This document shows positions 11,183-23,633 of a stretch of DNA of 24,000 bases, piece by piece. Position 1 is the first letter of the stretch. Each line of letters begins with the position of its first letter. The DNA is from an uncultured Acidobacteriota bacterium (lineage in GTDB: Bacteria > Actinomycetota > Acidimicrobiia > Spongiisociales > ZC4RG35), in assembly GCA_963843585.1 (NCBI GenBank), contig CAWJLJ010000014.1:51299-75298 (forward strand), in the 5' to 3' direction. A model generated the notes under the pieces. That model did not search any database. It was not told the origin of the DNA and was given only the letters and a program-made list of their open reading frames with translations. The translations under genes were made by a program, and so were the position numbers.

Positions 11183-11210
11183 CATCCGATCGGACCGGGC
11201 GCAACGAACA
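11183..11210 (+). promoter_or_regulatory. Candidate ECF (SigK-like) promoter of the heliorhodopsin operon: CATCC-N17-CGAACA, 6 nt from the ATG
   Basis: CATCC at 11183-11187, a 17-nt spacer, CGAACA at 11205-11210, then acgtgc and ATG 11217. There is no SD sequence, which fits a leaderless transcript. Confidence 0.55.
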
Positions 11211-11216
11211 ACGTGC

Positions 11217-11996
11217 ATGACGACAACGACAGAGACCATCGTCACGCCCCGGGCCGGTGATCGTCTCCGTGCCTACAACGTCGGCATGGGCGCGCTCCAC
11301 GCCATCCAGGCCTTCTTGGTCCTTTGGCTGGCCAACGGATTCACGCTCCCGGTGATCGCCACATACATGGCGGGGCCTCCTGGCTCCGCTCCGCCCGCGG
11401 TGACACCCCTCTTCGAGGTGAGCATTGCCTGGGGCGTGGCAATTTTCTTGTTCATGTCCGCCGTGGCCCACTTCCTCATCGCCTCGCCCGGCATCTACCA
11501 GTTGTATCGCCAGAACCTGAATCGCCAGCGCAACTATGCCCGTTGGATCGAGTACTCCCTCTCGTCATCGGTCATGGTGGTACTGATCGCCCTTCTGACC
11601 GGGATCGCCGACATCGCAGCCCTGCTTGCCATTGCCGGAGTCAATGCATCGATGATCCTGTTCGGCCTTCTCCAGGAGAAATATGAGACACCAGGCAAGG
11701 CGGTCGGCTGGCTGCCCTTCTGGTTCGGAGTTCTGGCCGGGGCTATTCCTTGGATCGCTATCGCCTGGTACCTGTTCAGCCCCGGCTTCGATTCGAACCC
11801 TCCCGGGTTCGTGTACGGGATCTTCTTCTCCCTCTTTGTCTTCTTCAACGTGTTCGCGGTCGTCATGGTCCTGCAGTACAAGCAGGTCGGTCGGTGGGCG
11901 GACTACAGCTTCGGGGAATCGACCTACATCCTGCTCAGCCTGGTGGCCAAGTCGGCCCTGGCGTGGCAGGTATTCGGAGGAACACTGGCGACATGA
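11217..11996 (+). CDS. Heliorhodopsin (seven-TM retinal protein)
   Basis: 259 aa, collinear with the prototype heliorhodopsin 48C12 as I recall it. Shared segments are RWIEYSLSSSVMVVLIA, GIADIAALLAIAGVNASMILFGLLQEKY, LPFWFG...IPWI, PGFVYGI and YILLSLVAKSALAWQVFGGTL. The Schiff-base Lys (K245), counter-ion Glu (E112) and conserved His (H28, H85) are all present. Confidence 0.92.
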   Translation: MTTTTETIVTPRAGDRLRAYNVGMGALHAIQAFLVLWLANGFTLPVIATYMAGPPGSAPPAVTPLFEVSIAWGVAIFLFMSAVAHFLIASPGIYQLYRQNLNRQRNYARWIEYSLSSSVMVVLIALLTGIADIAALLAIAGVNASMILFGLLQEKYETPGKAVGWLPFWFGVLAGAIPWIAIAWYLFSPGFDSNPPGFVYGIFFSLFVFFNVFAVVMVLQYKQVGRWADYSFGESTYILLSLVAKSALAWQVFGGTLAT

Positions 11997-14425: not shown

Positions 14426-14433
14426 CCGCTGTC

Positions 14434-14462
14434 AATTCGGCGCCGAACAACTAACTGGATGG
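14434..14462 (-). promoter_or_regulatory. Candidate ECF (SigK-like) promoter of the acyltransferase gene: CCATCC-N17-CGAATT, 8 nt from the ATG
   Basis: The minus strand reads CCATCC-agttagttgttcggcgc-CGAATT-gacagcgg-ATG. It contains the 12-bp perfect palindrome TTCGGCGCCGAA. Confidence 0.6.
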
Positions 14463-14512: not shown

Positions 14513-15721
14513 GTGCAGCTGATGCCGTCCACCATCTTCGTCATCTGGTTTGGAGCCGCCTTTGTTCTGACGGTCAACGCCCTGCGCCGCCCGGTGCAAC
14601 CAGGGAAGGGGATCCCACCCCCGTGGCTGCCCGCCATGATCGTCTCTGAGCTGGCGCCGTGGCTCCTCCTCGTGAGGATGTTGGGAGTCGTGGCGTTCAT
14701 CTGGATCGGGGTCCTGGAGTCGGCGGCAGGCCAGGTGGGGCTGGCGCTCTTCATCCTGTCCGAGCTGGGTTTGCTGATCTTGATCGGGCGAACGCTCGCC
14801 TCCGCCCGCGCCACCGGCCACAACCCCTCCTCGTGGTCACTGTTTCGGATCTGGGACCCCCTGCCCGAGGGAGTCATTGTGATTCCGGAAGTGCACTATT
14901 GGGATGGCCTGACCCTCGATATCTACCGGCGCGCGGAGTCGACTGCGGCGCCCGCCTTGATCTATGTCCACCCGGGCTCTTGGATGAGAGGGCGCCCTGG
15001 GCGCCAGGCCAGGGCGATGTTCCATCTTCTTGCCGTCTCCGGATGGGTGGTCCTCGATATCCGCTACCCACTCTCACCCGCAGCGACGTTCCCGGAGCAT
15101 CTCATCGGCGTGAAACGTGCCATTGCATGGGCCAGGACTGGAGGTGGCGAATACGGGATCGACCCCAATCTGGTCGGCATCTCGGGCGGCTCGTCGGGCG
15201 CCCATCTTGCTGCCCTCGCCGCGCTCACCTGGGACCGGACAGAGCTTCAGCCCGGCTTCGAGGACGCGGATACCAGCGTCATCGGATGCGTGCCCTTCTA
15301 CGGGATCTACGACCTGCTGGTGAGGAACCCGACACGGTTCGACTGGCCCTTCATCGCGCGGTACGTTCTCAAGGCCGACAAGCAAGAGGCCCCAGACCTC
15401 TATCGACTGGGATCGCCCATCGATCAGGCCCGCGGTGACACGCCCCCCTTCCTCGTGATCCACGGAGAGTTCGACTCCGTCGTCCTACCGGAGGAATCAC
15501 GCCACTTTGTGGCCGCCCTCGAGAGGGTCGGGGGGCGAGTCGAGTATCACGAGATCCTGGGAGCCCAGCATGGCTTCGATGCCGTGGCATCGCTGCGCTC
15601 CAGAGCCGTGGGGCGAATGGCCGCCGAGTGGCTCGGAGGGATCGTGTCGGAGATATCCAATAGAGGTCATCCGTCTCCAGAAGCGACTCTGAATGCAACG
15701 CCGGAGGCCCATCAGGCCTGA
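14513..15721 (+). CDS. Membrane-anchored alpha/beta-hydrolase (esterase/lipase, fold-3 / ICME-like)
   Basis: About 4 N-terminal TM helices, then LDIYRR..PALIYVHPGSW, the nucleophile elbow GGSSG, and the Asp/His candidates HGEFDSVV and GAQHGFD. The start may be GTG 14513 or ATG 14522. Confidence 0.85.
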   Translation: MQLMPSTIFVIWFGAAFVLTVNALRRPVQPGKGIPPPWLPAMIVSELAPWLLLVRMLGVVAFIWIGVLESAAGQVGLALFILSELGLLILIGRTLASARATGHNPSSWSLFRIWDPLPEGVIVIPEVHYWDGLTLDIYRRAESTAAPALIYVHPGSWMRGRPGRQARAMFHLLAVSGWVVLDIRYPLSPAATFPEHLIGVKRAIAWARTGGGEYGIDPNLVGISGGSSGAHLAALAALTWDRTELQPGFEDADTSVIGCVPFYGIYDLLVRNPTRFDWPFIARYVLKADKQEAPDLYRLGSPIDQARGDTPPFLVIHGEFDSVVLPEESRHFVAALERVGGRVEYHEILGAQHGFDAVASLRSRAVGRMAAEWLGGIVSEISNRGHPSPEATLNATPEAHQA

Positions 15722-16443
15722 GTGGCCACCGCCACGACATCGCCTTCACTGATGACCACTCCGCCGGCAACCTCCCGGGTCAGGGCGAACCCCGAAACGT
15801 CACCGGTCCACGTGAAGGTCGAGGCGCGAGGCTCGTTGCCTAGTACGCCACCGGAAATCACCTGCTCGTCGGTGGTGATCACCCACAGCTGATAGGTGCG
15901 CTGAGGCATCAGGGGCTCGAGATCCTCGGTGGGAACGACGAAGCCGTGGCCATCCTCGGTGAGAATCACCTGCGCAACGGAGGAGCCGTCGACCAGGAAA
16001 TCGCCGACGTAGGCACCGCTGCTGGAGGCCGCTTGCTCGGCCGCGGCGATCACTGCCGAGTCGCCCGTCAGATCGTGGAGTAACGACCTCTGAGCCAGGG
16101 CTATACCGGCGAAGACAAGGGCGGCCACGGCGGCGATTGCGGTCAGCAAGGTCACAGCTCTGGTTCTCCGTGGCTGCCCTTCTTCGAGATCGATGACCTC
16201 GGCGGCCCGGCCGAGTGGGATGTCCGCCCCGTTTCCGATAGCCGAGGCGATCCTGTCCCATCCATGGGTCGGCGTGGGTTCGTCCGGGACCAATTTCGAC
16301 GTCACGGCCGAGTACCGGGCCAGTTCGCGAAGACAGGCGTCACATGAGTGGAGGTGAGTCATCACCGCCTGGAGCTCATTCCCCTCCAGGCTGTCGAGGG
16401 CATAGAGCGGGACCAGTTCGTGGAGGAGGCTGTGGTTCGTCAT
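15712..16443 (-). CDS. rskA: Anti-sigma factor, RskA-like, with an N-terminal zinc-binding (ZAS) HxxxCxxC motif
   Basis: Its start overlaps the sigma gene stop as ATGA. It has H-LHS-C-DA-C (ZAS motif), one central TM helix (LLTAIAAVAALVFAGIALA), and an extracytoplasmic RskA-type domain (RTYQLWVITTDEQVISGGVL). Confidence 0.82.
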   Translation of the reverse strand: MTNHSLLHELVPLYALDSLEGNELQAVMTHLHSCDACLRELARYSAVTSKLVPDEPTPTHGWDRIASAIGNGADIPLGRAAEVIDLEEGQPRRTRAVTLLTAIAAVAALVFAGIALAQRSLLHDLTGDSAVIAAAEQAASSSGAYVGDFLVDGSSVAQVILTEDGHGFVVPTEDLEPLMPQRTYQLWVITTDEQVISGGVLGNEPRASTFTWTGDVSGFALTREVAGGVVISEGDVVAVATQA

Positions 16444-16988
16444 GCTGTCGCTCCCGACAGCGAGACCGCCAGCTTCTTCATGCCGCTGCGGATTCGGCTC
16501 TTCACAGTTCCCTCGGGCTCGCCCAGCCTCTTGGCCACCTCCACGTAGCTGAGCCCACCGAAATAGGCCAGAGAGATCGCCTCCCGTTCGCTTTCGGCGA
16601 GATCGTCGAGGGCCTTGCGCACCAACTCGGACAGGTTCCGGGTCCAGACCTCGTCAGCGACGTCGTAATGATCCGGATCTGGCGGCTTCTCTTCCCTACG
16701 GGCTCGGGCCACCTCGGATCTCACAATGTCCACTGCCCTGCGATGAGCGATGGTGAGCAGGAAGGTGCGCAATGAGCCGCGCCCGGGGTCGTACTTCTCC
16801 GGCGCGTTCCAGAAACCCACGAACGTGTCCTGCACGACATCATCTGCCAAAGCCTCGTCTCTCAACACCCGGAGAGCGATGGCCTTGACTGCGCCGCCGT
16901 ACTGCTGGAAGAGAGCTTCGAGCGCGGATTGGTCGCGGCTGGCAACTCTCTCCGCAAGAAGGGCATCCGGGGTGTTCGAGTCGCTCAT
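16440..16988 (-). CDS. sigK: ECF sigma-70 family factor, SigK-like
   Basis: Region 2 is DDVVQDTFVGFW and region 4 is LAYFGGLSYVEVAKRLGEPEGTVKSRIRSGMKKL. It is co-transcribed with the rskA-like gene. The preferred start is ATG 16988 (MSDSNTPD...). An upstream in-frame ATG at 17072 lies 10 nt after the candidate -10 and could be a leaderless start. Confidence 0.85.
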   Translation of the reverse strand: MSDSNTPDALLAERVASRDQSALEALFQQYGGAVKAIALRVLRDEALADDVVQDTFVGFWNAPEKYDPGRGSLRTFLLTIAHRRAVDIVRSEVARARREEKPPDPDHYDVADEVWTRNLSELVRKALDDLAESEREAISLAYFGGLSYVEVAKRLGEPEGTVKSRIRSGMKKLAVSLSGATA

Positions 16989-17082
16989 CGACCTGCCGGC
17001 GGACACATGAACCGGGGATGTTAGGTAGGCCCCATTCCGGTAACGCCCTGGCTGCAAGCGAGCTGACTCCATCTACAACACC

Positions 17083-17110
17083 TATTCGTCACCGCCCCGA
17101 GCCCTGGATG
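17083..17110 (-). promoter_or_regulatory. Candidate autoregulatory ECF promoter of sigK-rskA: CATCC-N17-CGAATA
   Basis: The minus strand reads tCATCC-agggctcggggcggtga-CGAATA. It lies back-to-back with the plus-strand copy at 17122-17150, with the two -35 elements 11 nt apart. Confidence 0.6.
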
Positions 17111-17121
17111 AGACAGCCGAC

Positions 17122-17150
17122 CCATCCGGTCTGCTGTTCGGCGACGAATA
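17122..17150 (+). promoter_or_regulatory. Candidate ECF promoter of the oxidoreductase-DUF1365-CFA synthase operon: CCATCC-N17-CGAATA, 6 nt from the ATG
   Basis: CCATCC-ggtctgctgttcggcga-CGAATA-cgcggc-ATG(17157). There is no SD, and it shares GTTCGGCG(A/C)CGAAT with the sites at 14434 and 23605. Confidence 0.62.
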
Positions 17151-17156
17151 CGCGGC

Positions 17157-18467
17157 ATGGGACAGAGAATCGCGATCGTCGGAACGGGCATCTCCGGTCT
17201 CGGCGCCGCCTGGGCCTTGCATCGGGACAATGACATCACGGTCTTCGAGGCGGACAATCGGATAGGCGGCCATTCGAATACCGTCGATGTCGAGACCCCC
17301 GATGGTCCTCTGGCGGTCGACACCGGATTCATCGTTTACAACGAGGTCACCTACCCCAACCTGACCCGCCTCTTCTCGTCGCTCGGCGTATCCACCGAAA
17401 TGAGTGACATGTCGTTTGCCTTCTCCCTGGACCGCCAGTTCGAGTACGGGGCGAGCCTGAGTGGGGTTTTGGCCGAGCCGGGCAACCTCCTCAGCCCGAG
17501 GTTCCTCCGGATGCTTCGAGACATAAGTCGATTCCGCCGCATCGGGACCATGCTGGAGCCGGCGGGCGACGAGAACATCGGCGAACTCCTCGAACGGTAC
17601 GGCTTCTCCCAAGGCTTCCTCGATGACTACCTCTACCCCATGACCGGTGCGATCTGGTCGGCTCAGCGATCGAATATCAGCATGTTCCCCGCTGCGTCGA
17701 TTCTCCGCTTTCTGGCCAACCACGGATTGATCGAGATCGTGGGGCGGCCCAGGTGGCGGACTGTGACCGGTGGGAGCCGGAGCTATGTCAATCGACTTGT
17801 GAGGCCCTTTGCCGACCGAATCAGAACGAACTCGCCCGTGAATCGCATCGTCCGCCTCGGCGGTGAGGTGCTGGTCGAGTCCAATGGGCAGACGCAGTCG
17901 TTCGAACAGATCATCTTCGCCACCCACCCCGATCAGGCTCTGGCCATCCTCGGTGAGGACGCCACCGATACCGAGGGCGCCGTACTCGGTGCCATGCGGT
18001 ATGAGTCGAACGTCGCCGTCCTCCATAGCGACTCGAGCCTGATGCCCCGGAACCGCAGGGTTTGGTCCAGCTGGAATGCGATGGCGGAGGAAGCCGGCCG
18101 CCGTCACCAGGTGGCCTCGGTGACCTACTGGATGAACCGCCTCCAGAACCTCAACCCCTCGTACCCCTTGTTCGTCTCCCTCAATCCGTTGCGGGAGCCG
18201 GATCCAGGCCAGGTTCACGCTCGTTTCGCATACGCCCACCCACAGTTCGATCTCGAATCGGTGGCGGCACAACAGGGTCTCGCCGCGATCCAGGGCCTGA
18301 GCAACACCTGGTTCGCCGGGGCCTACCTCGGCTACGGCTTCCACGAGGACGGGCTCCAGTCAGGTCTCAACGTGGCAGCGGCCCTCGGCTCCCCGGTGCC
18401 ATGGCACGGCACTTTCGAACCAGTTAGCTCGGCCCCGTCCTTCACGGGGAGGGTGGTGGTCCCTTGA
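17157..18467 (+). CDS. FAD/NAD(P)-binding amine-oxidase-family oxidoreductase (Rv0449c-like)
   Basis: 436 aa with an N-terminal Rossmann motif RIAIVGTGISGLGAAW...VFEA..RIGGH. The size and context match the flavin oxidoreductase that accompanies DUF1365 and CFA-synthase genes. Confidence 0.85.
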   Translation: MGQRIAIVGTGISGLGAAWALHRDNDITVFEADNRIGGHSNTVDVETPDGPLAVDTGFIVYNEVTYPNLTRLFSSLGVSTEMSDMSFAFSLDRQFEYGASLSGVLAEPGNLLSPRFLRMLRDISRFRRIGTMLEPAGDENIGELLERYGFSQGFLDDYLYPMTGAIWSAQRSNISMFPAASILRFLANHGLIEIVGRPRWRTVTGGSRSYVNRLVRPFADRIRTNSPVNRIVRLGGEVLVESNGQTQSFEQIIFATHPDQALAILGEDATDTEGAVLGAMRYESNVAVLHSDSSLMPRNRRVWSSWNAMAEEAGRRHQVASVTYWMNRLQNLNPSYPLFVSLNPLREPDPGQVHARFAYAHPQFDLESVAAQQGLAAIQGLSNTWFAGAYLGYGFHEDGLQSGLNVAAALGSPVPWHGTFEPVSSAPSFTGRVVVP

Positions 18468-19246
18468 GGCCGTTACGGTCTGCCCTCTACCAGGGCCGGG
18501 TGCGCCACACCCGGCTCCAGCCCTTTCATCACGATTTCGAGTACCGGGTCTTCTACGGGCTATTCGATATCGACGAGCTCGACTACCTCGACCGGGGACT
18601 CAGGCTCTTCTCAGTCGGAAGACGCAACCTGGCGAGCTTCTACCCCCAGGACCATGGCCCCGTCGACGGGAGCTCTCTTCGAGCCTGGGCCGAAGACGTC
18701 CTCGCAGAGGCGGGTGTCGACATCGACGGCGGAAGGATCGAGCTGCTCGCCTTCCCCCGGATCCTCGGCTACGCCTTCAACCCGTTGAGCGTCTGGTACT
18801 GCTACGGGAGCGAAGGCAATCTCAAAGGAGTCCTCCACGAGGTGCGGAACACGTTCGGTGACCGCCACGTGTACGTGGTGCCCGTCAATGATGAGACGGC
18901 GTACCGACACAGCTTCGCCAAGGCGATGCACGTATCCCCTTTCAATCCGATGGAGCAGACCTACCACTTCACGGTCAACCGGCCCGGGAAGCGGCTTCAA
19001 GTGGCGATCGAGCAGACCGACGAAAGGGGCAAGGTGTTCCGGGCGGGGATGAGGCTCTCACGGATTCCCTTGACCGACCGCAATCTGCTCAGGGTCTTCT
19101 TCACTCACCCCCTGGTGACGATGAAGGTCATCGCAGGGATCCACTGGCAAGCCCTGCGGCTCTGGCTCAAGGGCGCCACCTATCGGAAACGCCCTCGGCC
19201 CCCCGCCGATAGCATCACGATCGTGGACCCGAGCATGGTCGGATGA
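18464..19246 (+). CDS. DUF1365-family protein
   Basis: 260 aa. Its TTG start overlaps the previous stop as TTGA. The motifs SALYQGRVRHTR..P..H.F.YRVFY and FPRILGYAFNPLSVWYCY are typical of DUF1365. Confidence 0.8.
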   Translation: MRPLRSALYQGRVRHTRLQPFHHDFEYRVFYGLFDIDELDYLDRGLRLFSVGRRNLASFYPQDHGPVDGSSLRAWAEDVLAEAGVDIDGGRIELLAFPRILGYAFNPLSVWYCYGSEGNLKGVLHEVRNTFGDRHVYVVPVNDETAYRHSFAKAMHVSPFNPMEQTYHFTVNRPGKRLQVAIEQTDERGKVFRAGMRLSRIPLTDRNLLRVFFTHPLVTMKVIAGIHWQALRLWLKGATYRKRPRPPADSITIVDPSMVG

Positions 19247-20409
19247 AGGCCCGGGAGCGGCTAGGTCTCCGCGTCTTCTCCTGGCTGGCACGTGCAGGGA
19301 GCATCCAGGTGACGCTTCCCACCGGGGAGACGGTATCGATCGGCCACGGGTCGCCCGGCGCCGACGTCGAGATCACGGACTATTCGGCCGTGGCCGACAT
19401 CCTCCGCACCGGCCTCACCGGATTCGCGGAGGCGCATATGGACGGGCGGATCGAGACCTCGGACCTTCCCGCCCTGCTCCGCTGGGGCGTAGCCAACCAA
19501 GCCGCCTGGTTCGAGCACCCCCTGGCCCGTCTGACGCTGCCCTTCCGGAGGCTGTGGCAGCGGATCCGTCCCGAGAGACGGCACCCGCGAGTGCGAAGCA
19601 TGAACGATCATTACAACCTCGGAAACGACTTCTACGAGAAGTGGCTCGACGAAACGATGACCTACTCCTCCGCCCGTTTCCTCGACCCCGACCAACCGCT
19701 GTCGGGAGCCCAGATGAACAAGTACCGGCTGATCGCGGACAAGGCTGGCTTGGCGCCCGGGATGCGGGTACTCGAGATCGGATGCGGTTGGGGAGGATTC
19801 GCCGAATACGCAGCCTCGGAAAGAGGCTGTGAGGTCACCGCAATCACCTTATCCAAGGAGCAGGCGTCCTACGCCGAGAAGCGGATCGCCGAGCGCGGCC
19901 TGGCCGACAAGGTCGAGATCCGGCTCGCCGACTTCAGGGACATCACCGGCGAATTTGACGCAGTCGTCTCCATCGAGATGATCGAATCGGTCGACGAGAC
20001 CCATTGGCCGGCCCTGTTCGAGATGATCGCCGACCGCCTCAAGCCAGAGGCGCGGGCTGCGATGCAGATCATCACGATCAGAGACGACGAGTGGGAGCGC
20101 TACCGATCCAGGGCCGACTTCATACAGCAGTACATCTTCCCCGGGGGACAGATCCCGGCGCCCAAGGTCCTCAAGGCGTTCGCCGGCAAGGCCCGTCTGG
20201 ACGTGGAGCAAATCGAGACCTTCGGCCTCGACTACGCGCGAACCCTGGCGGCTTGGCGGGACCGCTTCCTGGAGGCGTGGCCGGTGCTCCAGGTTGAACA
20301 CGACCTCGACGAGCGTTTCCGCCGCATGTGGGAGCTGTACCTCGCCCTTTGCGAGGCGGGGTTCCGCATGGGGCGGATCAACGTCGAGCAGTGGGTATTC
20401 GCCCGCTGA
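19243..20409 (+). CDS. Cyclopropane-fatty-acyl-phospholipid synthase-family SAM-dependent methyltransferase
   Basis: Its ATG overlaps the previous stop as ATGA. It has HYNLGNDFYEKWLDETMTYSSA, the SAM motif VLEIGCGWGGFA, DAVVSIEMIE, FIQQYIFPGG and YLALCEAGF. Confidence 0.88.
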   Translation: MKARERLGLRVFSWLARAGSIQVTLPTGETVSIGHGSPGADVEITDYSAVADILRTGLTGFAEAHMDGRIETSDLPALLRWGVANQAAWFEHPLARLTLPFRRLWQRIRPERRHPRVRSMNDHYNLGNDFYEKWLDETMTYSSARFLDPDQPLSGAQMNKYRLIADKAGLAPGMRVLEIGCGWGGFAEYAASERGCEVTAITLSKEQASYAEKRIAERGLADKVEIRLADFRDITGEFDAVVSIEMIESVDETHWPALFEMIADRLKPEARAAMQIITIRDDEWERYRSRADFIQQYIFPGGQIPAPKVLKAFAGKARLDVEQIETFGLDYARTLAAWRDRFLEAWPVLQVEHDLDERFRRMWELYLALCEAGFRMGRINVEQWVFAR

Positions 20410-20453
20410 TAGATCTCCTCCGGCTCCTTCGCCCAGGTTCCTGACCCGGATCT

Positions 20454-20481
20454 CATCTGAATCACTCGACCGCTCCGAAGC
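20454..20481 (+). promoter_or_regulatory. Weaker match to the ECF motif: CATCT-N17-CGAAGC, upstream of the 20535 gene
   Basis: tCATCT-gaatcactcgaccgctc-CGAAGC, 53 nt before ATG 20535, which has its own SD gaaggag. There is one mismatch in the -35 and the -10 is degenerate. Confidence 0.3.
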
Positions 20482-20534
20482 ACGGGTGAAGCAAGCGACC
20501 ACTCAAGACGGTCGTAAGACAGAAGGAGATCTAA

Positions 20535-20939
20535 ATGCGCAAGCTGATGCTTCTCATGGCCGTGATGGTGGTGGCGATACTGCCGGCCACGGCCGCAATG
20601 GCCCAGTCGGACGAGGGTCAGGTCATCGTGGTTCACGGTGTTCCCGATCTGGACGTCGACGTGTACGTCAACGGTGAGCTCACCCTCGAGGGCTTTCAGT
20701 TCGGCGATGTAGCCGGTCCGCTGGACCTGCCCGCCGGCACCTACGAGATCGAGATATTCGCCGCCCTCTACCCGAAGGAAGAGCTGCCCCTGGACGCTAT
20801 CTTCTCCAAGGAGGGGCCTCCGGTGCTGACACTCATTACGTGCGGCGGCGGCTTTGATCCAGGCGTCGCTCGCTACGACAGCAACGTCGTCGTCTACGCC
20901 ACGCCAGCTGTCGACCTCCCGGCTTCTTTGATCGGGTGA
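20535..20939 (+). CDS. Secreted chimeric protein: signal peptide plus DUF4397-like N-terminal half fused to a sortase (class F-like) C-terminal tail
   Basis: Signal peptide MRKLMLLMAVMVVAILPATAAMA. The segment VIVVHGVPDLDVDVYVNG...LPAGTYEIEI is DUF4397-like. The segment LPLDAIFSKEGPPVLTLITCGGGFDPGVARYDSNVVVYATP is a sortase C-terminus with the TLxTC Cys and a downstream Arg, but there is no His-bearing sortase core. Confidence 0.6.
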   Translation: MRKLMLLMAVMVVAILPATAAMAQSDEGQVIVVHGVPDLDVDVYVNGELTLEGFQFGDVAGPLDLPAGTYEIEIFAALYPKEELPLDAIFSKEGPPVLTLITCGGGFDPGVARYDSNVVVYATPAVDLPASLIG

Positions 20940-21985
20940 TGGTGTCCTTCTCACGCTCGACCACAGGTAGCCTCCACGCTTTCGTAACGGAGCGAAAAGT
21001 GGATGAAAGCAGCCTCAGATCTGCGCGGCTCGGAGTCACCGCGGCCGCCCTTTCGGGGGACTCCGGCGGGCTCTACAACATCGTTGCCCGCCTCATGGAT
21101 GAGGGGGTTCCTCTCGACTCGCTGCTCTTCGACCTCCTCCTTCCCACTGAAAGAGATGTCGGATCGCGATGGCAAAGCGGGGATTACCTGGTCTCGGAGG
21201 AACACACCGCGACGGCCACAGTCGAGACCGTCGTCGCGCTCCTTGCGGGGTCGTTGGACCAACCAGAGGACGGCCTCCATGTCGTGGTTGCCTCAGCTGA
21301 AGGCGACTCTCACTCCTTGGCAGGCCGGGCCGTGGTCGCCTATCTACTCTTCAGCGGATTCCGGACCACCTTCCTCGGCGCCAACGTGCTCGCAACCGAC
21401 CTGCGGGAGTTCCTCGCCAGCGAGCAGCCCGACGCGATGATCATCTCCTGCACGATGACCAACCATCTCATCGGAGCCAGGGCAGTGATCAGCCAGAGCC
21501 ACTCCGCAGACGTGCCTGTACTCGCGGGAGGGCGGGCGTTCGGCGGGACCGGGGCGTGGGCGACCACGCTCGGAGCCGACGCCTGGGCGTCGCACCCGAG
21601 AGAGATCCCAGGCGTCCTACAGACCTGGGTGCCAGACGTAAGAGCGTCCGAGAGCCGGGCTCGTAACCCTTCGGACGACCTGCTGAAGCTGATCGAACGA
21701 CGCACCTCGGTTCTCGCTCGAGCACAGGAGGATCTGGAGCGACGTCTCGGAGAAACGCCTGGCCCCCGCCTGCGAGACGAGCTCGCCCTGCTTCTCGGCG
21801 CTGTCGAAGCGTCTTTGCTGGTAGGCGACAACGAGGTGGTCGTCGAGGCTCTCAAGTGGCAAAGAGCGACCCTCCAGGCCCACGGGCACGGCGACTCGGG
21901 CCCACTGACGGAGGCCGTCATTGCAGGCTTGCAGCCGGTATCCCTCGAAGCCGCCGAGGCTCTTCGCTCCGCCCTGTCCAGTTAG
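20936..21985 (+). CDS. Stand-alone cobalamin (B12)-binding protein, CarH/AerR-like, lacking a DNA-binding domain
   Basis: A four-helix-bundle region carries W79-x9-E89-H90 (RWQSGDYLVSEEH). A Rossmann-like B12-binding domain carries DSHSLA (the DxHxxG-type lower-ligand His126) and VLAGG. A ~130-aa helical C-terminal extension follows. The start is uncertain: GTG 20936 or ATG 20939 (coupled to the upstream stop), or GTG 20999 with ggag upstream. Confidence 0.75.
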   Translation: MMVSFSRSTTGSLHAFVTERKVDESSLRSARLGVTAAALSGDSGGLYNIVARLMDEGVPLDSLLFDLLLPTERDVGSRWQSGDYLVSEEHTATATVETVVALLAGSLDQPEDGLHVVVASAEGDSHSLAGRAVVAYLLFSGFRTTFLGANVLATDLREFLASEQPDAMIISCTMTNHLIGARAVISQSHSADVPVLAGGRAFGGTGAWATTLGADAWASHPREIPGVLQTWVPDVRASESRARNPSDDLLKLIERRTSVLARAQEDLERRLGETPGPRLRDELALLLGAVEASLLVGDNEVVVEALKWQRATLQAHGHGDSGPLTEAVIAGLQPVSLEAAEALRSALSS

Positions 21986-22063: not shown

Positions 22064-23596
22064 TTAGATCGGTGGCTTCGGGCGTCGGCCGGCCACCTCG
22101 ACAATGCGACGGGCCATCGGGCCGAAAACCATCGAATGGAACGGCCAGAGCAGATACCAGTAGAGGCGACCTGCCAGTCCGCGTGGGGCGAAGTGAGCGG
22201 TCTGGATCAGACTGGTATGGCCACTCTTGCTTTCGACTTCAAACTCGAGCCAGGCCTCGCCAGGCAATCTCATCTCGGCGACCAGCAGGAGGCGTCGGTT
22301 GTCTTCGAGGTCGGCCACCCGCCAGAAGTCGAGTGTGTCACCTCGCACCAAAGCAGTGCGGGGTCCCGCATTTCGCTGGAGGCCGACACCGCCCACCACA
22401 CGGTCGATCAGACCTCGAAACCACCAGGCCCAACCGGCGGCGTAGTAGCCAACTTCGCCTCCTATCCGTGTCACTGCCCAGTAGACGTCCGCTGCCGGAG
22501 CTGCCGTTTCCACCACCTTGCGGTCCCGCAGCCAGCGGGCACCGGCCCAGGCCGGATCGGTTGGCAGGCTCACCGCCGGTTGCTCCACAGCCTCGTGCCA
22601 TCGGGTTTCATCGGTGTTCCCCTCCACCCTTTCCAGGGCGTCAGAAACGGCCTCGCGATACGGGCTGAGGGGACGCTCGACAAACTCTGTTGCCGCGTTC
22701 TCGGTGACAACGACCTCGGTGATGAGGCTGTCTATGAGGGTGCGCGCGATTCGGGTGGGCACTGCGGTGACGAGACCCACCCATCGAGAGGAGAGCGAGG
22801 GGGAGAACATCGGCACTGGCAAGATCAGGCGGTGCCGAAGACCGGCCTCTTCGGCGTAGATCTGCATCATGTCCCTGTAGGTGAGAACGTCGGGACCGCC
22901 CACCTCCAGCATCTGATGATCGGCCAGGTCGTGATCGAGCAGTCCGACAAGAACTGCCAATACATCCCTGGCAGCGATGGGCTGGCATCGAGTCTGAACC
23001 CAACGAGGCGTGATCATCACTGGAAGCACCTCGGTCAGATGTCGAAGCATTTCGAACGAGACCGAGCCCGACCCGATGATCACTGCCGCCCTGACCTCAC
23101 TGAGTGCGATCGGACCGGCGGCGAGAACCCGACCTACCTCTTGACGGCTGGCCAGATGGCCGGAGAGGTTGGTCGAGCCTCCCAGACCACCCATGTAGAT
23201 GATCCTCTGCACGCCCTGACGTTCCGCCGCCCGACGGAAGTTCTCGGCGGCTTGACGGTCACGGGTGGCAAACCCCTCGCCGCCGTCCATCGAGTGAATC
23301 AGGTAGTAGGCGGTGTCAATCCCCTCCAGAGCGGCGTCCAACGATGCCCGCTCCAGAGCATCCGCCACCGCCACCTCCACCTGCTTATGCCAGGGGTGGC
23401 CGCTGAGACCCTCGGCGCTCCGCACCATGCAACGCACCTGATAGCCCGCCGCCAGGAGTTGGGGCACCAGGCGGCCCCCCAGGTAGCCACTGGCTCCGGT
23501 CACCAGCAATGTGGATCCGGAAGTGCGTGCGGGGTCAGCCGACGATGGCTCCGCTGATGCCCTCTCGTACTGTTGCAAAGCATCCTCGTTCGTCAT
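22064..23596 (-). CDS. Atypical SDR / NmrA-like NAD(P)-binding domain fused to a DUF2867 domain
   Basis: 510 aa with LLVTGASGYLGGRL (Rossmann fold) and an extended-SDR-like N-terminal half. The C-terminal ~150 aa (WRVADLE...LLLVAEMRLPGEAWLEFEV...) are typical of DUF2867. Confidence 0.82.
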   Translation of the reverse strand: MTNEDALQQYERASAEPSSADPARTSGSTLLVTGASGYLGGRLVPQLLAAGYQVRCMVRSAEGLSGHPWHKQVEVAVADALERASLDAALEGIDTAYYLIHSMDGGEGFATRDRQAAENFRRAAERQGVQRIIYMGGLGGSTNLSGHLASRQEVGRVLAAGPIALSEVRAAVIIGSGSVSFEMLRHLTEVLPVMITPRWVQTRCQPIAARDVLAVLVGLLDHDLADHQMLEVGGPDVLTYRDMMQIYAEEAGLRHRLILPVPMFSPSLSSRWVGLVTAVPTRIARTLIDSLITEVVVTENAATEFVERPLSPYREAVSDALERVEGNTDETRWHEAVEQPAVSLPTDPAWAGARWLRDRKVVETAAPAADVYWAVTRIGGEVGYYAAGWAWWFRGLIDRVVGGVGLQRNAGPRTALVRGDTLDFWRVADLEDNRRLLLVAEMRLPGEAWLEFEVESKSGHTSLIQTAHFAPRGLAGRLYWYLLWPFHSMVFGPMARRIVEVAGRRPKPPI

Positions 23597-23604
23597 CCAC
23601 TAGT

Positions 23605-23633
23605 GATTCGGCGCCGAACCTTGTCGTGGATTG
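23605..23633 (-). promoter_or_regulatory. Candidate ECF promoter of the SDR-DUF2867 gene: CAATCC-N17-CGAATC, 8 nt from the ATG
   Basis: The minus strand reads CAATCC-acgacaaggttcggcgc-CGAATC-actagtgg-ATG(23596). It shares the 14-mer ATTCGGCGCCGAAC with the acyltransferase promoter. Confidence 0.55.

Follow-up and report, generated by a model that had tools for sequence, protein, structure and literature searches.

The window, i.e. the whole stretch of 24,000 nucleotides that was analysed, encodes a stand-alone photocobilin of 328 aa on the plus strand (probable coding sequence at 20999-21985, including the stop codon) in one cluster with a sigma factor system of the SigK type. The SigK-like ECF sigma factor gene (16440-17072, minus strand) was identified by its Pfam domains Sigma70_r2 and r4_2 and by its best NCBIfam match, to the SigK model PRK09646 (E 1.8e-48, below the cut-off), and it has its own CATCC-N17-CGAA motif (17085-17110, minus strand; motif scan). 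The RskA-like anti-sigma factor is full-length (15712-16443, minus strand; Pfam RskA_C, zf-HC2 and RskA_N), with an intact HxxxCxxC in its zinc-finger anti-sigma domain, one transmembrane helix and an RskA_C domain. A SigK-dependent operon for FAD amine oxidase, a DUF1365 protein and cyclopropane-fatty-acid (CFA) synthase (17157-20409, plus strand; Pfam; motif at 17123-17148) separates sigK from the photocobilin in this layout, and the latter is the tail end of an operon, at a distance of 3.9 kb from sigK. The heliorhodopsin that the original prediction had placed in the same cluster is encoded there (11217-11996, plus strand; Pfam, E 6e-101) and, with a motif at 11183-11208, is a member of the SigK regulon. 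Altogether, eight strict SigK motifs occur in the window, where 0.95 would be expected. Neither a riboswitch nor any other RNA family was detected in the window by Rfam, and no tRNA by ARAGORN.

Upstream of the photocobilin lies a 134-aa remnant (20535-20939, plus strand; Pfam, NCBIfam), in which the N-terminus of a DUF4397 protein is fused in frame to the C-terminus of a class F sortase. It had been taken for a secreted chimera; it is not a functional partner of the photocobilin. In blastn comparison with the locus L015, window positions 20400-20764 correspond to L015 396-759 and positions 20763-21010 to L015 1978-2229; the remnant is evidently the scar of a 1218-bp deletion in a DUF4397-sortase gene pair, with the junction near 20763. 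Intact pairs of this kind are present in L002, L004 and other loci. The weak copy of the regulon motif that had been noted upstream does exist and reads CATCT-N17-CGAAG (20454-20480, plus strand), 5' of the remnant gene.

As the longest ORF, the photocobilin frame spans 20936-21985 (plus strand), as first described, and codes for 349 aa. The start is most likely the GTG at 20999, 59 nt past the stop codon of the chimera, because the relatives (328-336 aa) start at the equivalent of V22, a Shine-Dalgarno GGAG (20989-20992, plus strand; direct reading of the sequence) stands 6 nt 5' of this GTG, a conserved -10-like box, TAGCCT (20968-20973, plus strand), is located 31 nt 5' of the start codon, and the locus L011, whose protein is 98% identical, has a 1-nt indel within the putative 21-codon N-terminal extension. 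A start at 20936 was rejected on the grounds of the relatives' starts and of this indel. The extension (20936-20998, plus strand) is most likely a non-coding 5' region; its residues are absent from relatives, and further length variation occurs within it in L013-L016. The translational coupling to the chimera, proposed earlier, is thus unsupported and is an artefact of choosing the longest ORF.

Domain architecture and ligand pockets

Both B12-binding domains that had been anticipated were found by profile-HMM search, with Pfam matches exceeding their cut-offs: a B12-binding_2 four-helix bundle (21038-21244, plus strand; PF02607, E 8.6e-10, residues 35-103) and a Rossmann-type B12-binding domain (21278-21580, plus strand; PF02310, E 1.5e-14, residues 115-215). 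Direct count confirmed R78-W79-x9-E89-H90 in the helical bundle (W79 at 21170-21172, E89-H90 at 21200-21205) and the lower-ligand motif D124-S-H126-S-L-A (H126 at 21311-21313), and neither Pfam nor NCBIfam detected a MerR/HTH domain. The motifs and Pfam matches support the prediction of a light-responsive B12 module of the CarH type that lacks a DNA-binding domain. W79, E89 and H126 are invariant in 29/29 aligned sequences, and H90 is present in 37/37 members of the clade and nearly invariant overall. All four, invariant in 37 relatives, align with W61, E71, H72 and H108 of SasPcob, the stand-alone photocobilin of Saccharothrix syringae (PDB 8J2W, dark, and 8J2X, light; Zhang et al. 2024, PMC10979010). 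Among the light-responsive signatures (PMC11796333), G76-x-x-W79, E89-H90 and G123-x-x-H126 are present; the fourth, GxxxP, is G148-A-N-V-L152 here, where Leu replaces the Pro that deeper branches of the clade keep. The second His beside the Trp (His132 of TtCarH, bis-His light state) is not there: Gln follows W79, as in SasPcob, and so no bis-His light state is expected in either protein. Since the host genome encodes CobA/CobO and an AdoCbl-dependent methylmalonyl-CoA mutase, a supply of AdoCbl is plausible.

With its B12 domains intact, the protein could in principle sense cobalamin availability or redox instead of light, and relay B12 status to SigK or some other partner; stand-alone B12 proteins of the AerR/PpaA type answer to cobalamin form, redox and light (PMC10734443). 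We consider this quite improbable, given that an adenosyl pocket with W-x9-EH, invariant here, marks B12 binders as light-responsive (PMC11796333, PMC10979010) and that neighbours such as heliorhodopsin and photolyase point to light. A methyl-carrier role of the MtbC/MtaC corrinoid kind is far less probable still, although JGI names many relatives 'methanogenic corrinoid protein MtbC1' and weak NCBIfam matches to corrinoid proteins exist. These matches (MtbC/MtaC/MtgC) reach 18-39 bits against cut-offs of 215-450, no methyltransferase partner was found in 54 loci, and the best matches in both sequence and fold are photocobilins and CarH; this candidate was rejected.

The C-terminal extension of ~130 aa had been correctly described as helical, but it had not been noticed that it is a photoglobin domain (21638-21982, plus strand), five-helix and globin-like, as is seen from the full-length sequence and fold matches to photocobilins. 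Its ~115 residues are helical in the AF2 model (pLDDT 95.4). In a phmmer search of the PDB, residues 29-319 of the 349-aa ORF aligned with 8J2W/8J2X (E 5e-34), C-terminal domain included. The top Foldseek matches, 8J2W, 8J2X and 8J2Y, are full-length (TM 0.82-0.84), whereas the cobalamin-binding domain of CarH spans only the first ~200 residues (TM 0.53). Because the extension is a photoglobin domain, the protein is a new member of the already described photocobilin family (PMC10979010): a cytoplasmic stand-alone photocobilin, with a CarH-type AdoCbl module packed on a photoglobin domain. Membership of CarH/LitR was rejected, as there is no HTH, no equivalent of His132 and a score of only 39 bits for the NCBIfam CarH model against a cut-off of 400. 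The protein itself is therefore ordinary, one more photocobilin of a family described in 2024, and the point of interest is its context.

Architecture and fold are those of SasPcob (three domains, TM 0.83, 31% identity), which likewise stands alone and has no output domain, and the two proteins have in common W-x9-EH, the His lower ligand and the Trp at position 296 of SasPcob (W308 here, at 21857-21859; Trp in 37/37 relatives). They differ in the Pro-to-Leu change in GxxxP and in the bilin site: the position of the biliverdin ligand Asp270 is E282 here (21779-21781; Glu in 29/37 relatives) and that of His137 is D155 (21398-21400; Asp in 36/37). A canonical heme oxygenase (PF01126) was found neither in the host genome nor in 61 genomes of the family. 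Photocobilins are defined as binding both AdoCbl and biliverdin, with Co-C cleavage set off by red and green light. Owing to these two replacements and because no canonical heme oxygenase was found in the family, use of biliverdin by the present photocobilin is doubtful, and in this clade the photoglobin domain may serve as a partner-binding surface and not as a biliverdin holder. Position 270 does not decide photocobilin membership, as the accepted member AbPcob has His there, but it does matter for the use of bilin. AbDPcob (PDB 8J2Y), a photocobilin-diguanylate cyclase fusion of an Acidimicrobiaceae bacterium and hence from the same bacterial class, has the same photocobilin fold (TM 0.82-0.85) at only 28% identity, and bears a fused GGDEF output domain that is missing here. 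Its altered biliverdin site (His at 270) and weak binding of biliverdin are a precedent for a non-bilin role of the photoglobin domain.

Promoters and genomic neighbours of photocobilin genes

The photocobilin had been suggested to be a second photosensory input or output of the cluster. Across the comparison set of 54 Acidimicrobiia species loci with photocobilin, the input half of this proposal fits better, because the SigK motif stands before just 3/54 photocobilin genes, which have a conserved TAGCCT box of their own. The motif is found before heliorhodopsin in 16/19 loci, before amine oxidase in 9/14 and before intact DUF4397 genes (strict motif) in 9/14; no CATCC-N16-18-CGAA was present on the plus strand within 130 nt upstream of the window photocobilin. 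Hexamers of the TAGCCT/TACGCT/TAGATT type, in turn, stand 16-42 nt (mostly 30-35 nt) 5' of the start in 34/56 loci, in both gene layouts, compared with a chance expectation of ~5 loci by our own estimate. The eighth strict motif of the window (20981-21005, minus strand), over the start codon, was treated as a chance occurrence: it ends in CGAAA, unlike the sites before genes. It overlaps the Shine-Dalgarno and start region, whose conservation has other causes.

Read-through from the motif at 17123 or from the weak one at 20454, both upstream of the window photocobilin, could nonetheless induce it, and it might then belong to the SigK regulon as an output or accessory and not be a regulator, serving, e.g., as a light-protected store of AdoCbl or a photoprotective pigment protein under stress. 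On the motif census this reading is largely rejected and we rate it improbable; it also sits poorly with the commonest layout, in which the photocobilin is a single gene divergent from sigK, and with the signalling nature of the known family members (PMC10979010).

Synteny strongly supports the originally proposed link to an ECF sigma circuit. In 39/54 species loci the photocobilin has a sigK ortholog upstream of it, in every case on the opposite strand and in 24 of them within 300 nt; sigK is the most constant neighbour (39 loci, compared with 19 for heliorhodopsin). Within the family, photocobilin is present in 13/20 SigK-positive and in 0/16 SigK-negative genomes (Fisher p 5e-5, which overstates the evidence, the genomes compared being kin); the remaining 7/20 SigK-positive genomes lack it, so SigK can function without it. 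In two families (f4 and f7) the same divergent position is occupied by an HTH_17-B12 gene, CarH/LitR-like. P0091 and P0094, distant photocobilin-like proteins whose photoglobin is N-terminal, adjoin histidine kinases or unrelated genes, and for this reason the SigK link is specific to the present clade and not common to all photocobilins.

The state of the anti-sigma factor varies along with this linkage. Among the sigK loci linked to a photocobilin, 11 encode a full RskA and 10 a soluble zinc-finger stub of 67-85 aa; 15 have no anti-sigma domain, scored at the locus only, so that the factor could be encoded elsewhere in the genome. At sigK loci without photocobilin, RskA is full in 16/16 (p 1.5e-6 against the linked loci, again an overstatement for kindred genomes). 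At least four loci have no room for an anti-sigma gene beside sigK. Two genomes possess two sigK paralogs each, of which one is accompanied by a full RskA and the other by photocobilin together with a short or contig-truncated stub.

Proximity to sigK might instead reflect an island of light-related genes, in which a working photocobilin photoreceptor addresses a partner outside the sigma system; heliorhodopsin, a lipid enzyme or a protein encoded elsewhere might be that partner. Heliorhodopsin follows the photocobilin directly, on the same strand and 49-303 nt downstream, in 14 loci, which makes it a possible partner, and the cluster holds both photolyase and heliorhodopsin. Moreover, partners are clade-dependent: photocobilin-like proteins elsewhere pair with histidine kinases, and SasPcob with STAS/SpoIIE proteins (PMC10979010). 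Even so, heliorhodopsin usually has a SigK promoter of its own in the gap (16/19), sigK remains the commoner neighbour, and neither the truncation or loss of RskA only where photocobilin is present nor the HTH-B12 regulator at the same position in other families would be explained. On balance, a partner outside the sigma system is unlikely, yet it is the most serious of the alternatives.

A proposed light input to SigK

In a protein that has no DNA-binding domain, control must act on proteins and not on an operator. Stand-alone photocobilins act through protein-protein contacts, with no natural partner known (PMC10979010). That the photocobilin is the light input to SigK through such contacts is, in our estimate, an evenly balanced proposition. 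By homology to SasPcob and CarH, AdoCbl would be held in the dark in a head-to-tail dimer, and UV-to-green light would cleave the Co-C bond and alter both oligomeric state and surface. Comparative genomics points to the neighbouring SigK-type ECF sigma system as the partner of this switch: the photocobilin would bind SigK itself or else RskA, at its short cytoplasmic anti-sigma domain, and SigK would be inactive in the dark and freed in the light, a direction that we infer from the regulon content only. Freed SigK would activate the CATCC-N17-CGAA regulon, which comprises heliorhodopsin-SRPBCC-SDR, amine oxidase-DUF1365-CFA synthase, fasciclin, acyltransferase and esterase genes, with photolyase in relatives. 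The non-SigK promoter of the photocobilin would keep the sensor on hand before induction.

A few observations speak against a SigK input. The RskA of the window is full-length with its HxxxCxxC intact, and the usual control of SigK would be possible without a photocobilin; the window photocobilin is as far as 3.9 kb from sigK; and a zinc-finger stub could sense oxidants, like RsrA, with no need for a photoreceptor.

A narrower form of the SigK-input reading, which we hold somewhat more tentatively, is that the photocobilin could be a light-gated anti-sigma or co-anti-sigma factor for sigma factors of the SigK type (ECF19). In darkness SigK would be sequestered either by the AdoCbl-bound oligomer itself or through the 70-residue zinc-finger stub, which the oligomer would clamp onto it, and light would release SigK. 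No Pfam match to an anti-sigma fold or zf-HC2 motif was found in the photocobilin, and the anti-sigma-domain HMM matches only the RskA frame in the window; the protein is not a member of the anti-sigma family and, if it acts on SigK, would be a new kind of partner. If true, this reading would add a new class to the regulators of sigma factors and supply the first natural partnership for stand-alone photocobilins; light would become a signal for SigK-type factors, for which no trigger has been known ever since the mycobacterial regulon was defined (PMC7509140 for SigK-RskA). The route from light through photocobilin to SigK is testable with four small parts that are soluble or easy to express, namely the photocobilin, SigK, the 72-aa stub and a promoter reporter; if the hypothesis holds, synthetic biology could use them as a compact sigma switch that responds to green light.

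The Acidimicrobiia cluster brings together stand-alone photocobilins, SigK-RskA and heliorhodopsins, the last of which have few established functions. Its SigK regulon contains heliorhodopsin (and photolyase in relatives), the sigma gene is nearly always accompanied by a B12 photoreceptor, and the anti-sigma factor degenerates, being often shrunken or missing, at photocobilin-bearing loci. Whereas the genomic partners of SasPcob are STAS/SpoIIE/PP2C proteins, here they are the ECF SigK/RskA pair. In Streptomyces, LitR-LitS is a B12 photoreceptor paired with an ECF sigma factor. Judging from gene context, the circuit logic would be shared, with photoprotection genes driven by an ECF sigma factor whose gene adjoins that of a B12 photoreceptor. 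CarH/LitR and the present protein have in common a predicted AdoCbl light switch with W-x9-EH, but the latter lacks the DNA-binding domain and the His132 equivalent of CarH and has an additional photoglobin domain. AerR/PpaA of purple bacteria are likewise stand-alone B12 proteins, and regulate by binding CrtJ/PpsR and not DNA; their partner is, however, a repressor and not a sigma/anti-sigma system, and they have no photoglobin domain. AerR/PpaA use hydroxocobalamin with an upper His ligand.

The sigma/anti-sigma type is the same as in mycobacterial SigK-RskA (ECF19) and in the sigmaE-ChrR singlet-oxygen regulon of Rhodobacter, and the regulons share amine oxidase, DUF1365 and CFA synthase as core genes, the fasciclin proteins being counterparts of MPT70/MPT83. 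Neither a B12 photoreceptor nor a heliorhodopsin has been described in those systems, and it is in the present clade that the anti-sigma factor is often a stub or absent. In M. kansasii, light induces the SigK-regulon homologues mpt70 and mpt83 (PMC9861118).

Stand-alone photocobilin and its cofactors

The open reading frame predicted at 20936-21985 (+) exists, and its product is a stand-alone photocobilin, a fresh member of an already known family. By far the best PDB sequence matches were 8J2W/8J2X (E 5e-34) and 8J2Y (E 3e-29), the photocobilins SasPcob (Saccharothrix syringae) and AbPcob (Acidimicrobiaceae) (Zhang et al. 2024, PMC10979010). The alignments span residues 29-319 (numbered on the 349-aa frame from 20936) and so include the helical C-terminal extension of the original prediction; the extension itself is real, but its family had been overlooked. 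Photocobilins are B12 photoreceptors in which a C-terminal five-helix photoglobin domain holds biliverdin beside the corrin (PMC10979010). A confident AF2 model, built from 37 relatives (pLDDT 95.4, pTM 0.91), matched the three photocobilin structures from end to end (Foldseek, TM 0.82-0.84), whereas its match to the CarH cobalamin domain, with which a comparison had been suggested, was confined to the N-terminal ~200 residues (TMq ~0.53).

Both domains expected of a B12 module, B12-binding_2 (residues 35-103) and B12-binding (115-215), exceeded the Pfam cut-offs. As had been claimed for MerR/HTH, Pfam found no DNA-binding domain in the frame, and NCBIfam matches to CarH and corrinoid carrier protein were all sub-threshold. 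W79-x9-E89-H90 and D124-S-H126 are present by direct count; W79, E89 and H126 are invariant in alignments with relatives, and H90 within the clade. The residue count, the Pfam domains and this invariance together show the W-x9-EH motif to be genuine and no chance match. Residue mapping showed W61, E71, H72, H108 and W296 of SasPcob to be conserved. As in SasPcob and unlike in CarH, Gln follows the tryptophan, and no bis-His light state of the CarH kind is to be expected. Among the published light-response signatures GxxW, EH, GxxH and GxxxP (PMC11796333), three of the four are present; in GxxxP, Leu replaces Pro.

The source genome (3.4 Mb, 94% complete) encodes the CobA/CobO adenosyltransferase and methylmalonyl-CoA mutase, hence AdoCbl is in use; a PduO-type adenosyltransferase was not found in this genome, which has only one other B12-binding_2 protein. 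The biliverdin site is altered: the position of the SasPcob ligand Asp270 is Glu in 29/37 relatives, and that of His137, which in SasPcob forms a salt bridge to a biliverdin propionate across the dimer (PMC10979010), is Asp in 36/37. Canonical heme oxygenase (PF01126) was not found in the source genome and 60 genomes of its family (43 of the 61 being at least 90% complete, and several carrying photocobilin). The canonical biliverdin route thus appears to be missing from a family that encodes a biliverdin-type photoreceptor domain. Because of the altered site and the heme oxygenase result, biliverdin use in the clade is doubtful; the photoglobin domain may have some other role there, as the authors likewise suggested for AbDPcob, a diguanylate cyclase fusion (PMC10979010).

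Gene start and promoter-like motifs

The translational coupling to an upstream chimera that had been proposed is most likely an artefact. Relatives are 328-336 aa long, with their first residue at the position of V22, and a GGAG is located 6 nt 5' of the GTG at 20999, giving a likely coding sequence of 20999-21985 (328 aa). The 63 nt of 20936-20998 contain a TAGCCT hexamer (20968-20973, +); 34 of 56 loci have such a hexamer 16-42 nt (mostly 30-35) 5' of the start codon, regardless of the upstream gene. Moreover, L011, a locus whose photocobilin is 98% identical, has a 1-nt indel within this stretch. The relatives' starts, the GGAG, the conserved hexamer and the indel indicate that 20936-20998 is most likely a non-coding promoter/5' region. 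The hexamer agrees with the -10 pattern TAnnnT of actinobacterial housekeeping promoters. The photocobilin leader is ~25 nt long with a Shine-Dalgarno sequence, unlike several SigK-motif genes (11183-11216, 17123-17156, 14426-14461), in which CGAA is merely 6-10 nt from the start codon and whose transcripts are, for this reason, probably leaderless.

A SigK-like ECF sigma factor and an RskA-like anti-sigma factor are encoded in the window (Pfam, NCBIfam), whose gene set resembles that of the mycobacterial SigK locus, in agreement with PMC7509140. The motif CATCC-N16-18-CGAA occurs in 8 copies in the window versus 0.95 expected by chance, with copies directly 5' of the fasciclin, heliorhodopsin, esterase, acyltransferase and sigK genes and the amine oxidase operon. 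A seventh SigK-type motif (23594-23618, +) faces right, with the DUF2867 gene behind it; its -10 region, the palindrome TTCGGCGCCGAA, is common to it and the opposite-strand DUF2867 promoter. No gene was identified 3' of it, and ARAGORN found no tRNA anywhere in the window. The weak copy noted in the original prediction was recovered as CATCT...CGAAG at 20454-20480, where it lies 5' of a DUF4397 remnant. A strict CATCC-N16-CGAA match over the photocobilin Shine-Dalgarno sequence and start codon (20981-21005, -) points antisense into the remnant gene and ends in CGAAA, unlike the sites 5' of genes; it is probably a chance match but could be an antisense promoter. In a census of 54 related loci, the strict motif preceded heliorhodopsin (16/19), amine oxidase (9/14), DUF4397 (9/14) and acyltransferase (6/12), but photocobilin in only 3/54, which argues that photocobilin is no typical output of the regulon.

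Linkage to sigK and its anti-sigma factor

The locus scan, with one genome per species, covered 54 loci, nearly all labelled Acidimicrobiia. A SigK ortholog was found upstream of photocobilin, always on the opposite strand, in 39 of them, and most of the remainder have upstream sequence too short to judge. In one layout sigK and photocobilin are back to back (<300 nt apart in 24 loci), often with heliorhodopsin directly downstream of photocobilin (14 loci in all); in the other, seen in the window, sigK faces away from an amine oxidase-DUF1365-CFA synthase(-DUF4397-sortase)-photocobilin series. Of the 301 genomes sampled from the class, 32 have the photocobilin gene; within the family it is present in 13/20 SigK-positive versus 0/16 SigK-negative genomes.

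Anti-sigma factors were scored from the ORF directly after sigK and by anti-sigma-domain HMM in all six frames. Full RskA (219-243 aa, with transmembrane helix and RskA_C) accompanies 11 sigK loci with photocobilin and 16/16 in genomes without it. A soluble zf-HC2 stub (67-85 aa, lacking a membrane segment) was found in 10 loci with photocobilin, and in 15 others no anti-sigma domain was found in the locus; both counts are 0 in genomes without photocobilin. In at least four of these 15 loci the space next to sigK is too small for an anti-sigma gene. Fisher's test of RskA status against photocobilin gave p 1.5e-6, a value that overstates independence, as the genomes are mutually related. Two genomes, G001 and G046, have two sigK paralogs each (L087/L088; L090/L091): one is accompanied by full-length RskA together with photolyase or MPAB/DUF4397/sortase, and its counterpart is back to back with photocobilin. 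Beside the latter, G046 (L090) has only a ~70-aa anti-sigma stub, and in G001 (L087) the contig stops inside the anti-sigma gene.

In families f4 and f7, likewise Acidimicrobiia, the product of the gene that diverges from sigK combines HTH_17, B12-binding_2 and B12-binding with W-x9-EH (L080 3673-4491, +; L083 3878-4777, -; also L079, L081 and L082), a CarH/LitR-like one-component photoreceptor at the position of photocobilin. Since two different B12 photoreceptor architectures occupy the same position, we argue that B12-sensed light is an input to the SigK-type system; one form of the sensor binds DNA, and that of the photocobilin clade must act via protein contacts.

On purely comparative-genomic grounds, we propose that photocobilin and SigK, optionally with a minimal anti-sigma stub, constitute a previously undescribed variant among ECF circuits under light control. 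By homology, the protein would be an AdoCbl-bound dimer in the dark, and light would cause Co-C cleavage and a change in quaternary structure (PMC10979010). The context suggests SigK or the anti-sigma domain as partner, with dark as the off and light as the on state; the genes of the regulon have photoprotective functions (photolyase in relatives, heliorhodopsin, lipid-modifying enzymes). In the window, which also has a full RskA, photocobilin would supply a second input, from the cytoplasm, in addition to any signal that RskA senses. Described photoglobin/photocobilin partners include histidine kinases, GGDEF, SpoIIE and STAS (PMC8717448, PMC10979010); these two papers make no mention of ECF sigma factors, heliorhodopsin or sortase, nor do heliorhodopsin context studies mention B12 proteins, and the photocobilin literature searched for partner contexts holds no description of the SigK pairing. 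The SigK signal has been stated as unknown (PMC7509140), and in M. kansasii light induces homologues of SigK-regulon genes (PMC9861118).

Rearrangement of the cluster

In L013 and L016, whose photocobilins are 93% identical to that of the window, the RskA anti-sigma domain is lost; across these and L001 (89-93% identical), rskA is lost or fragmented and sigK retained. In L001, moreover, DUF1365 is broken into two ORFs and the block is bordered by IS481/IS110 transposase genes. These changes in rskA, DUF1365 and transposases suggest that in this lineage the cluster is undergoing decay or rearrangement. The 134-aa ORF 20535-20939 is what a clean in-frame deletion left behind: compared with L015, 1218 bp are gone, and DUF4397 residues 1-77 now run directly into the C-terminal ~58 residues of a class F sortase; the sortase part keeps the TLITC cysteine, without the catalytic His. 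Intact copies of both genes occur in L015, L002, L004 and others, and in closer relatives the pair has decayed in other ways, being gone in L013 and fragmented in L001.
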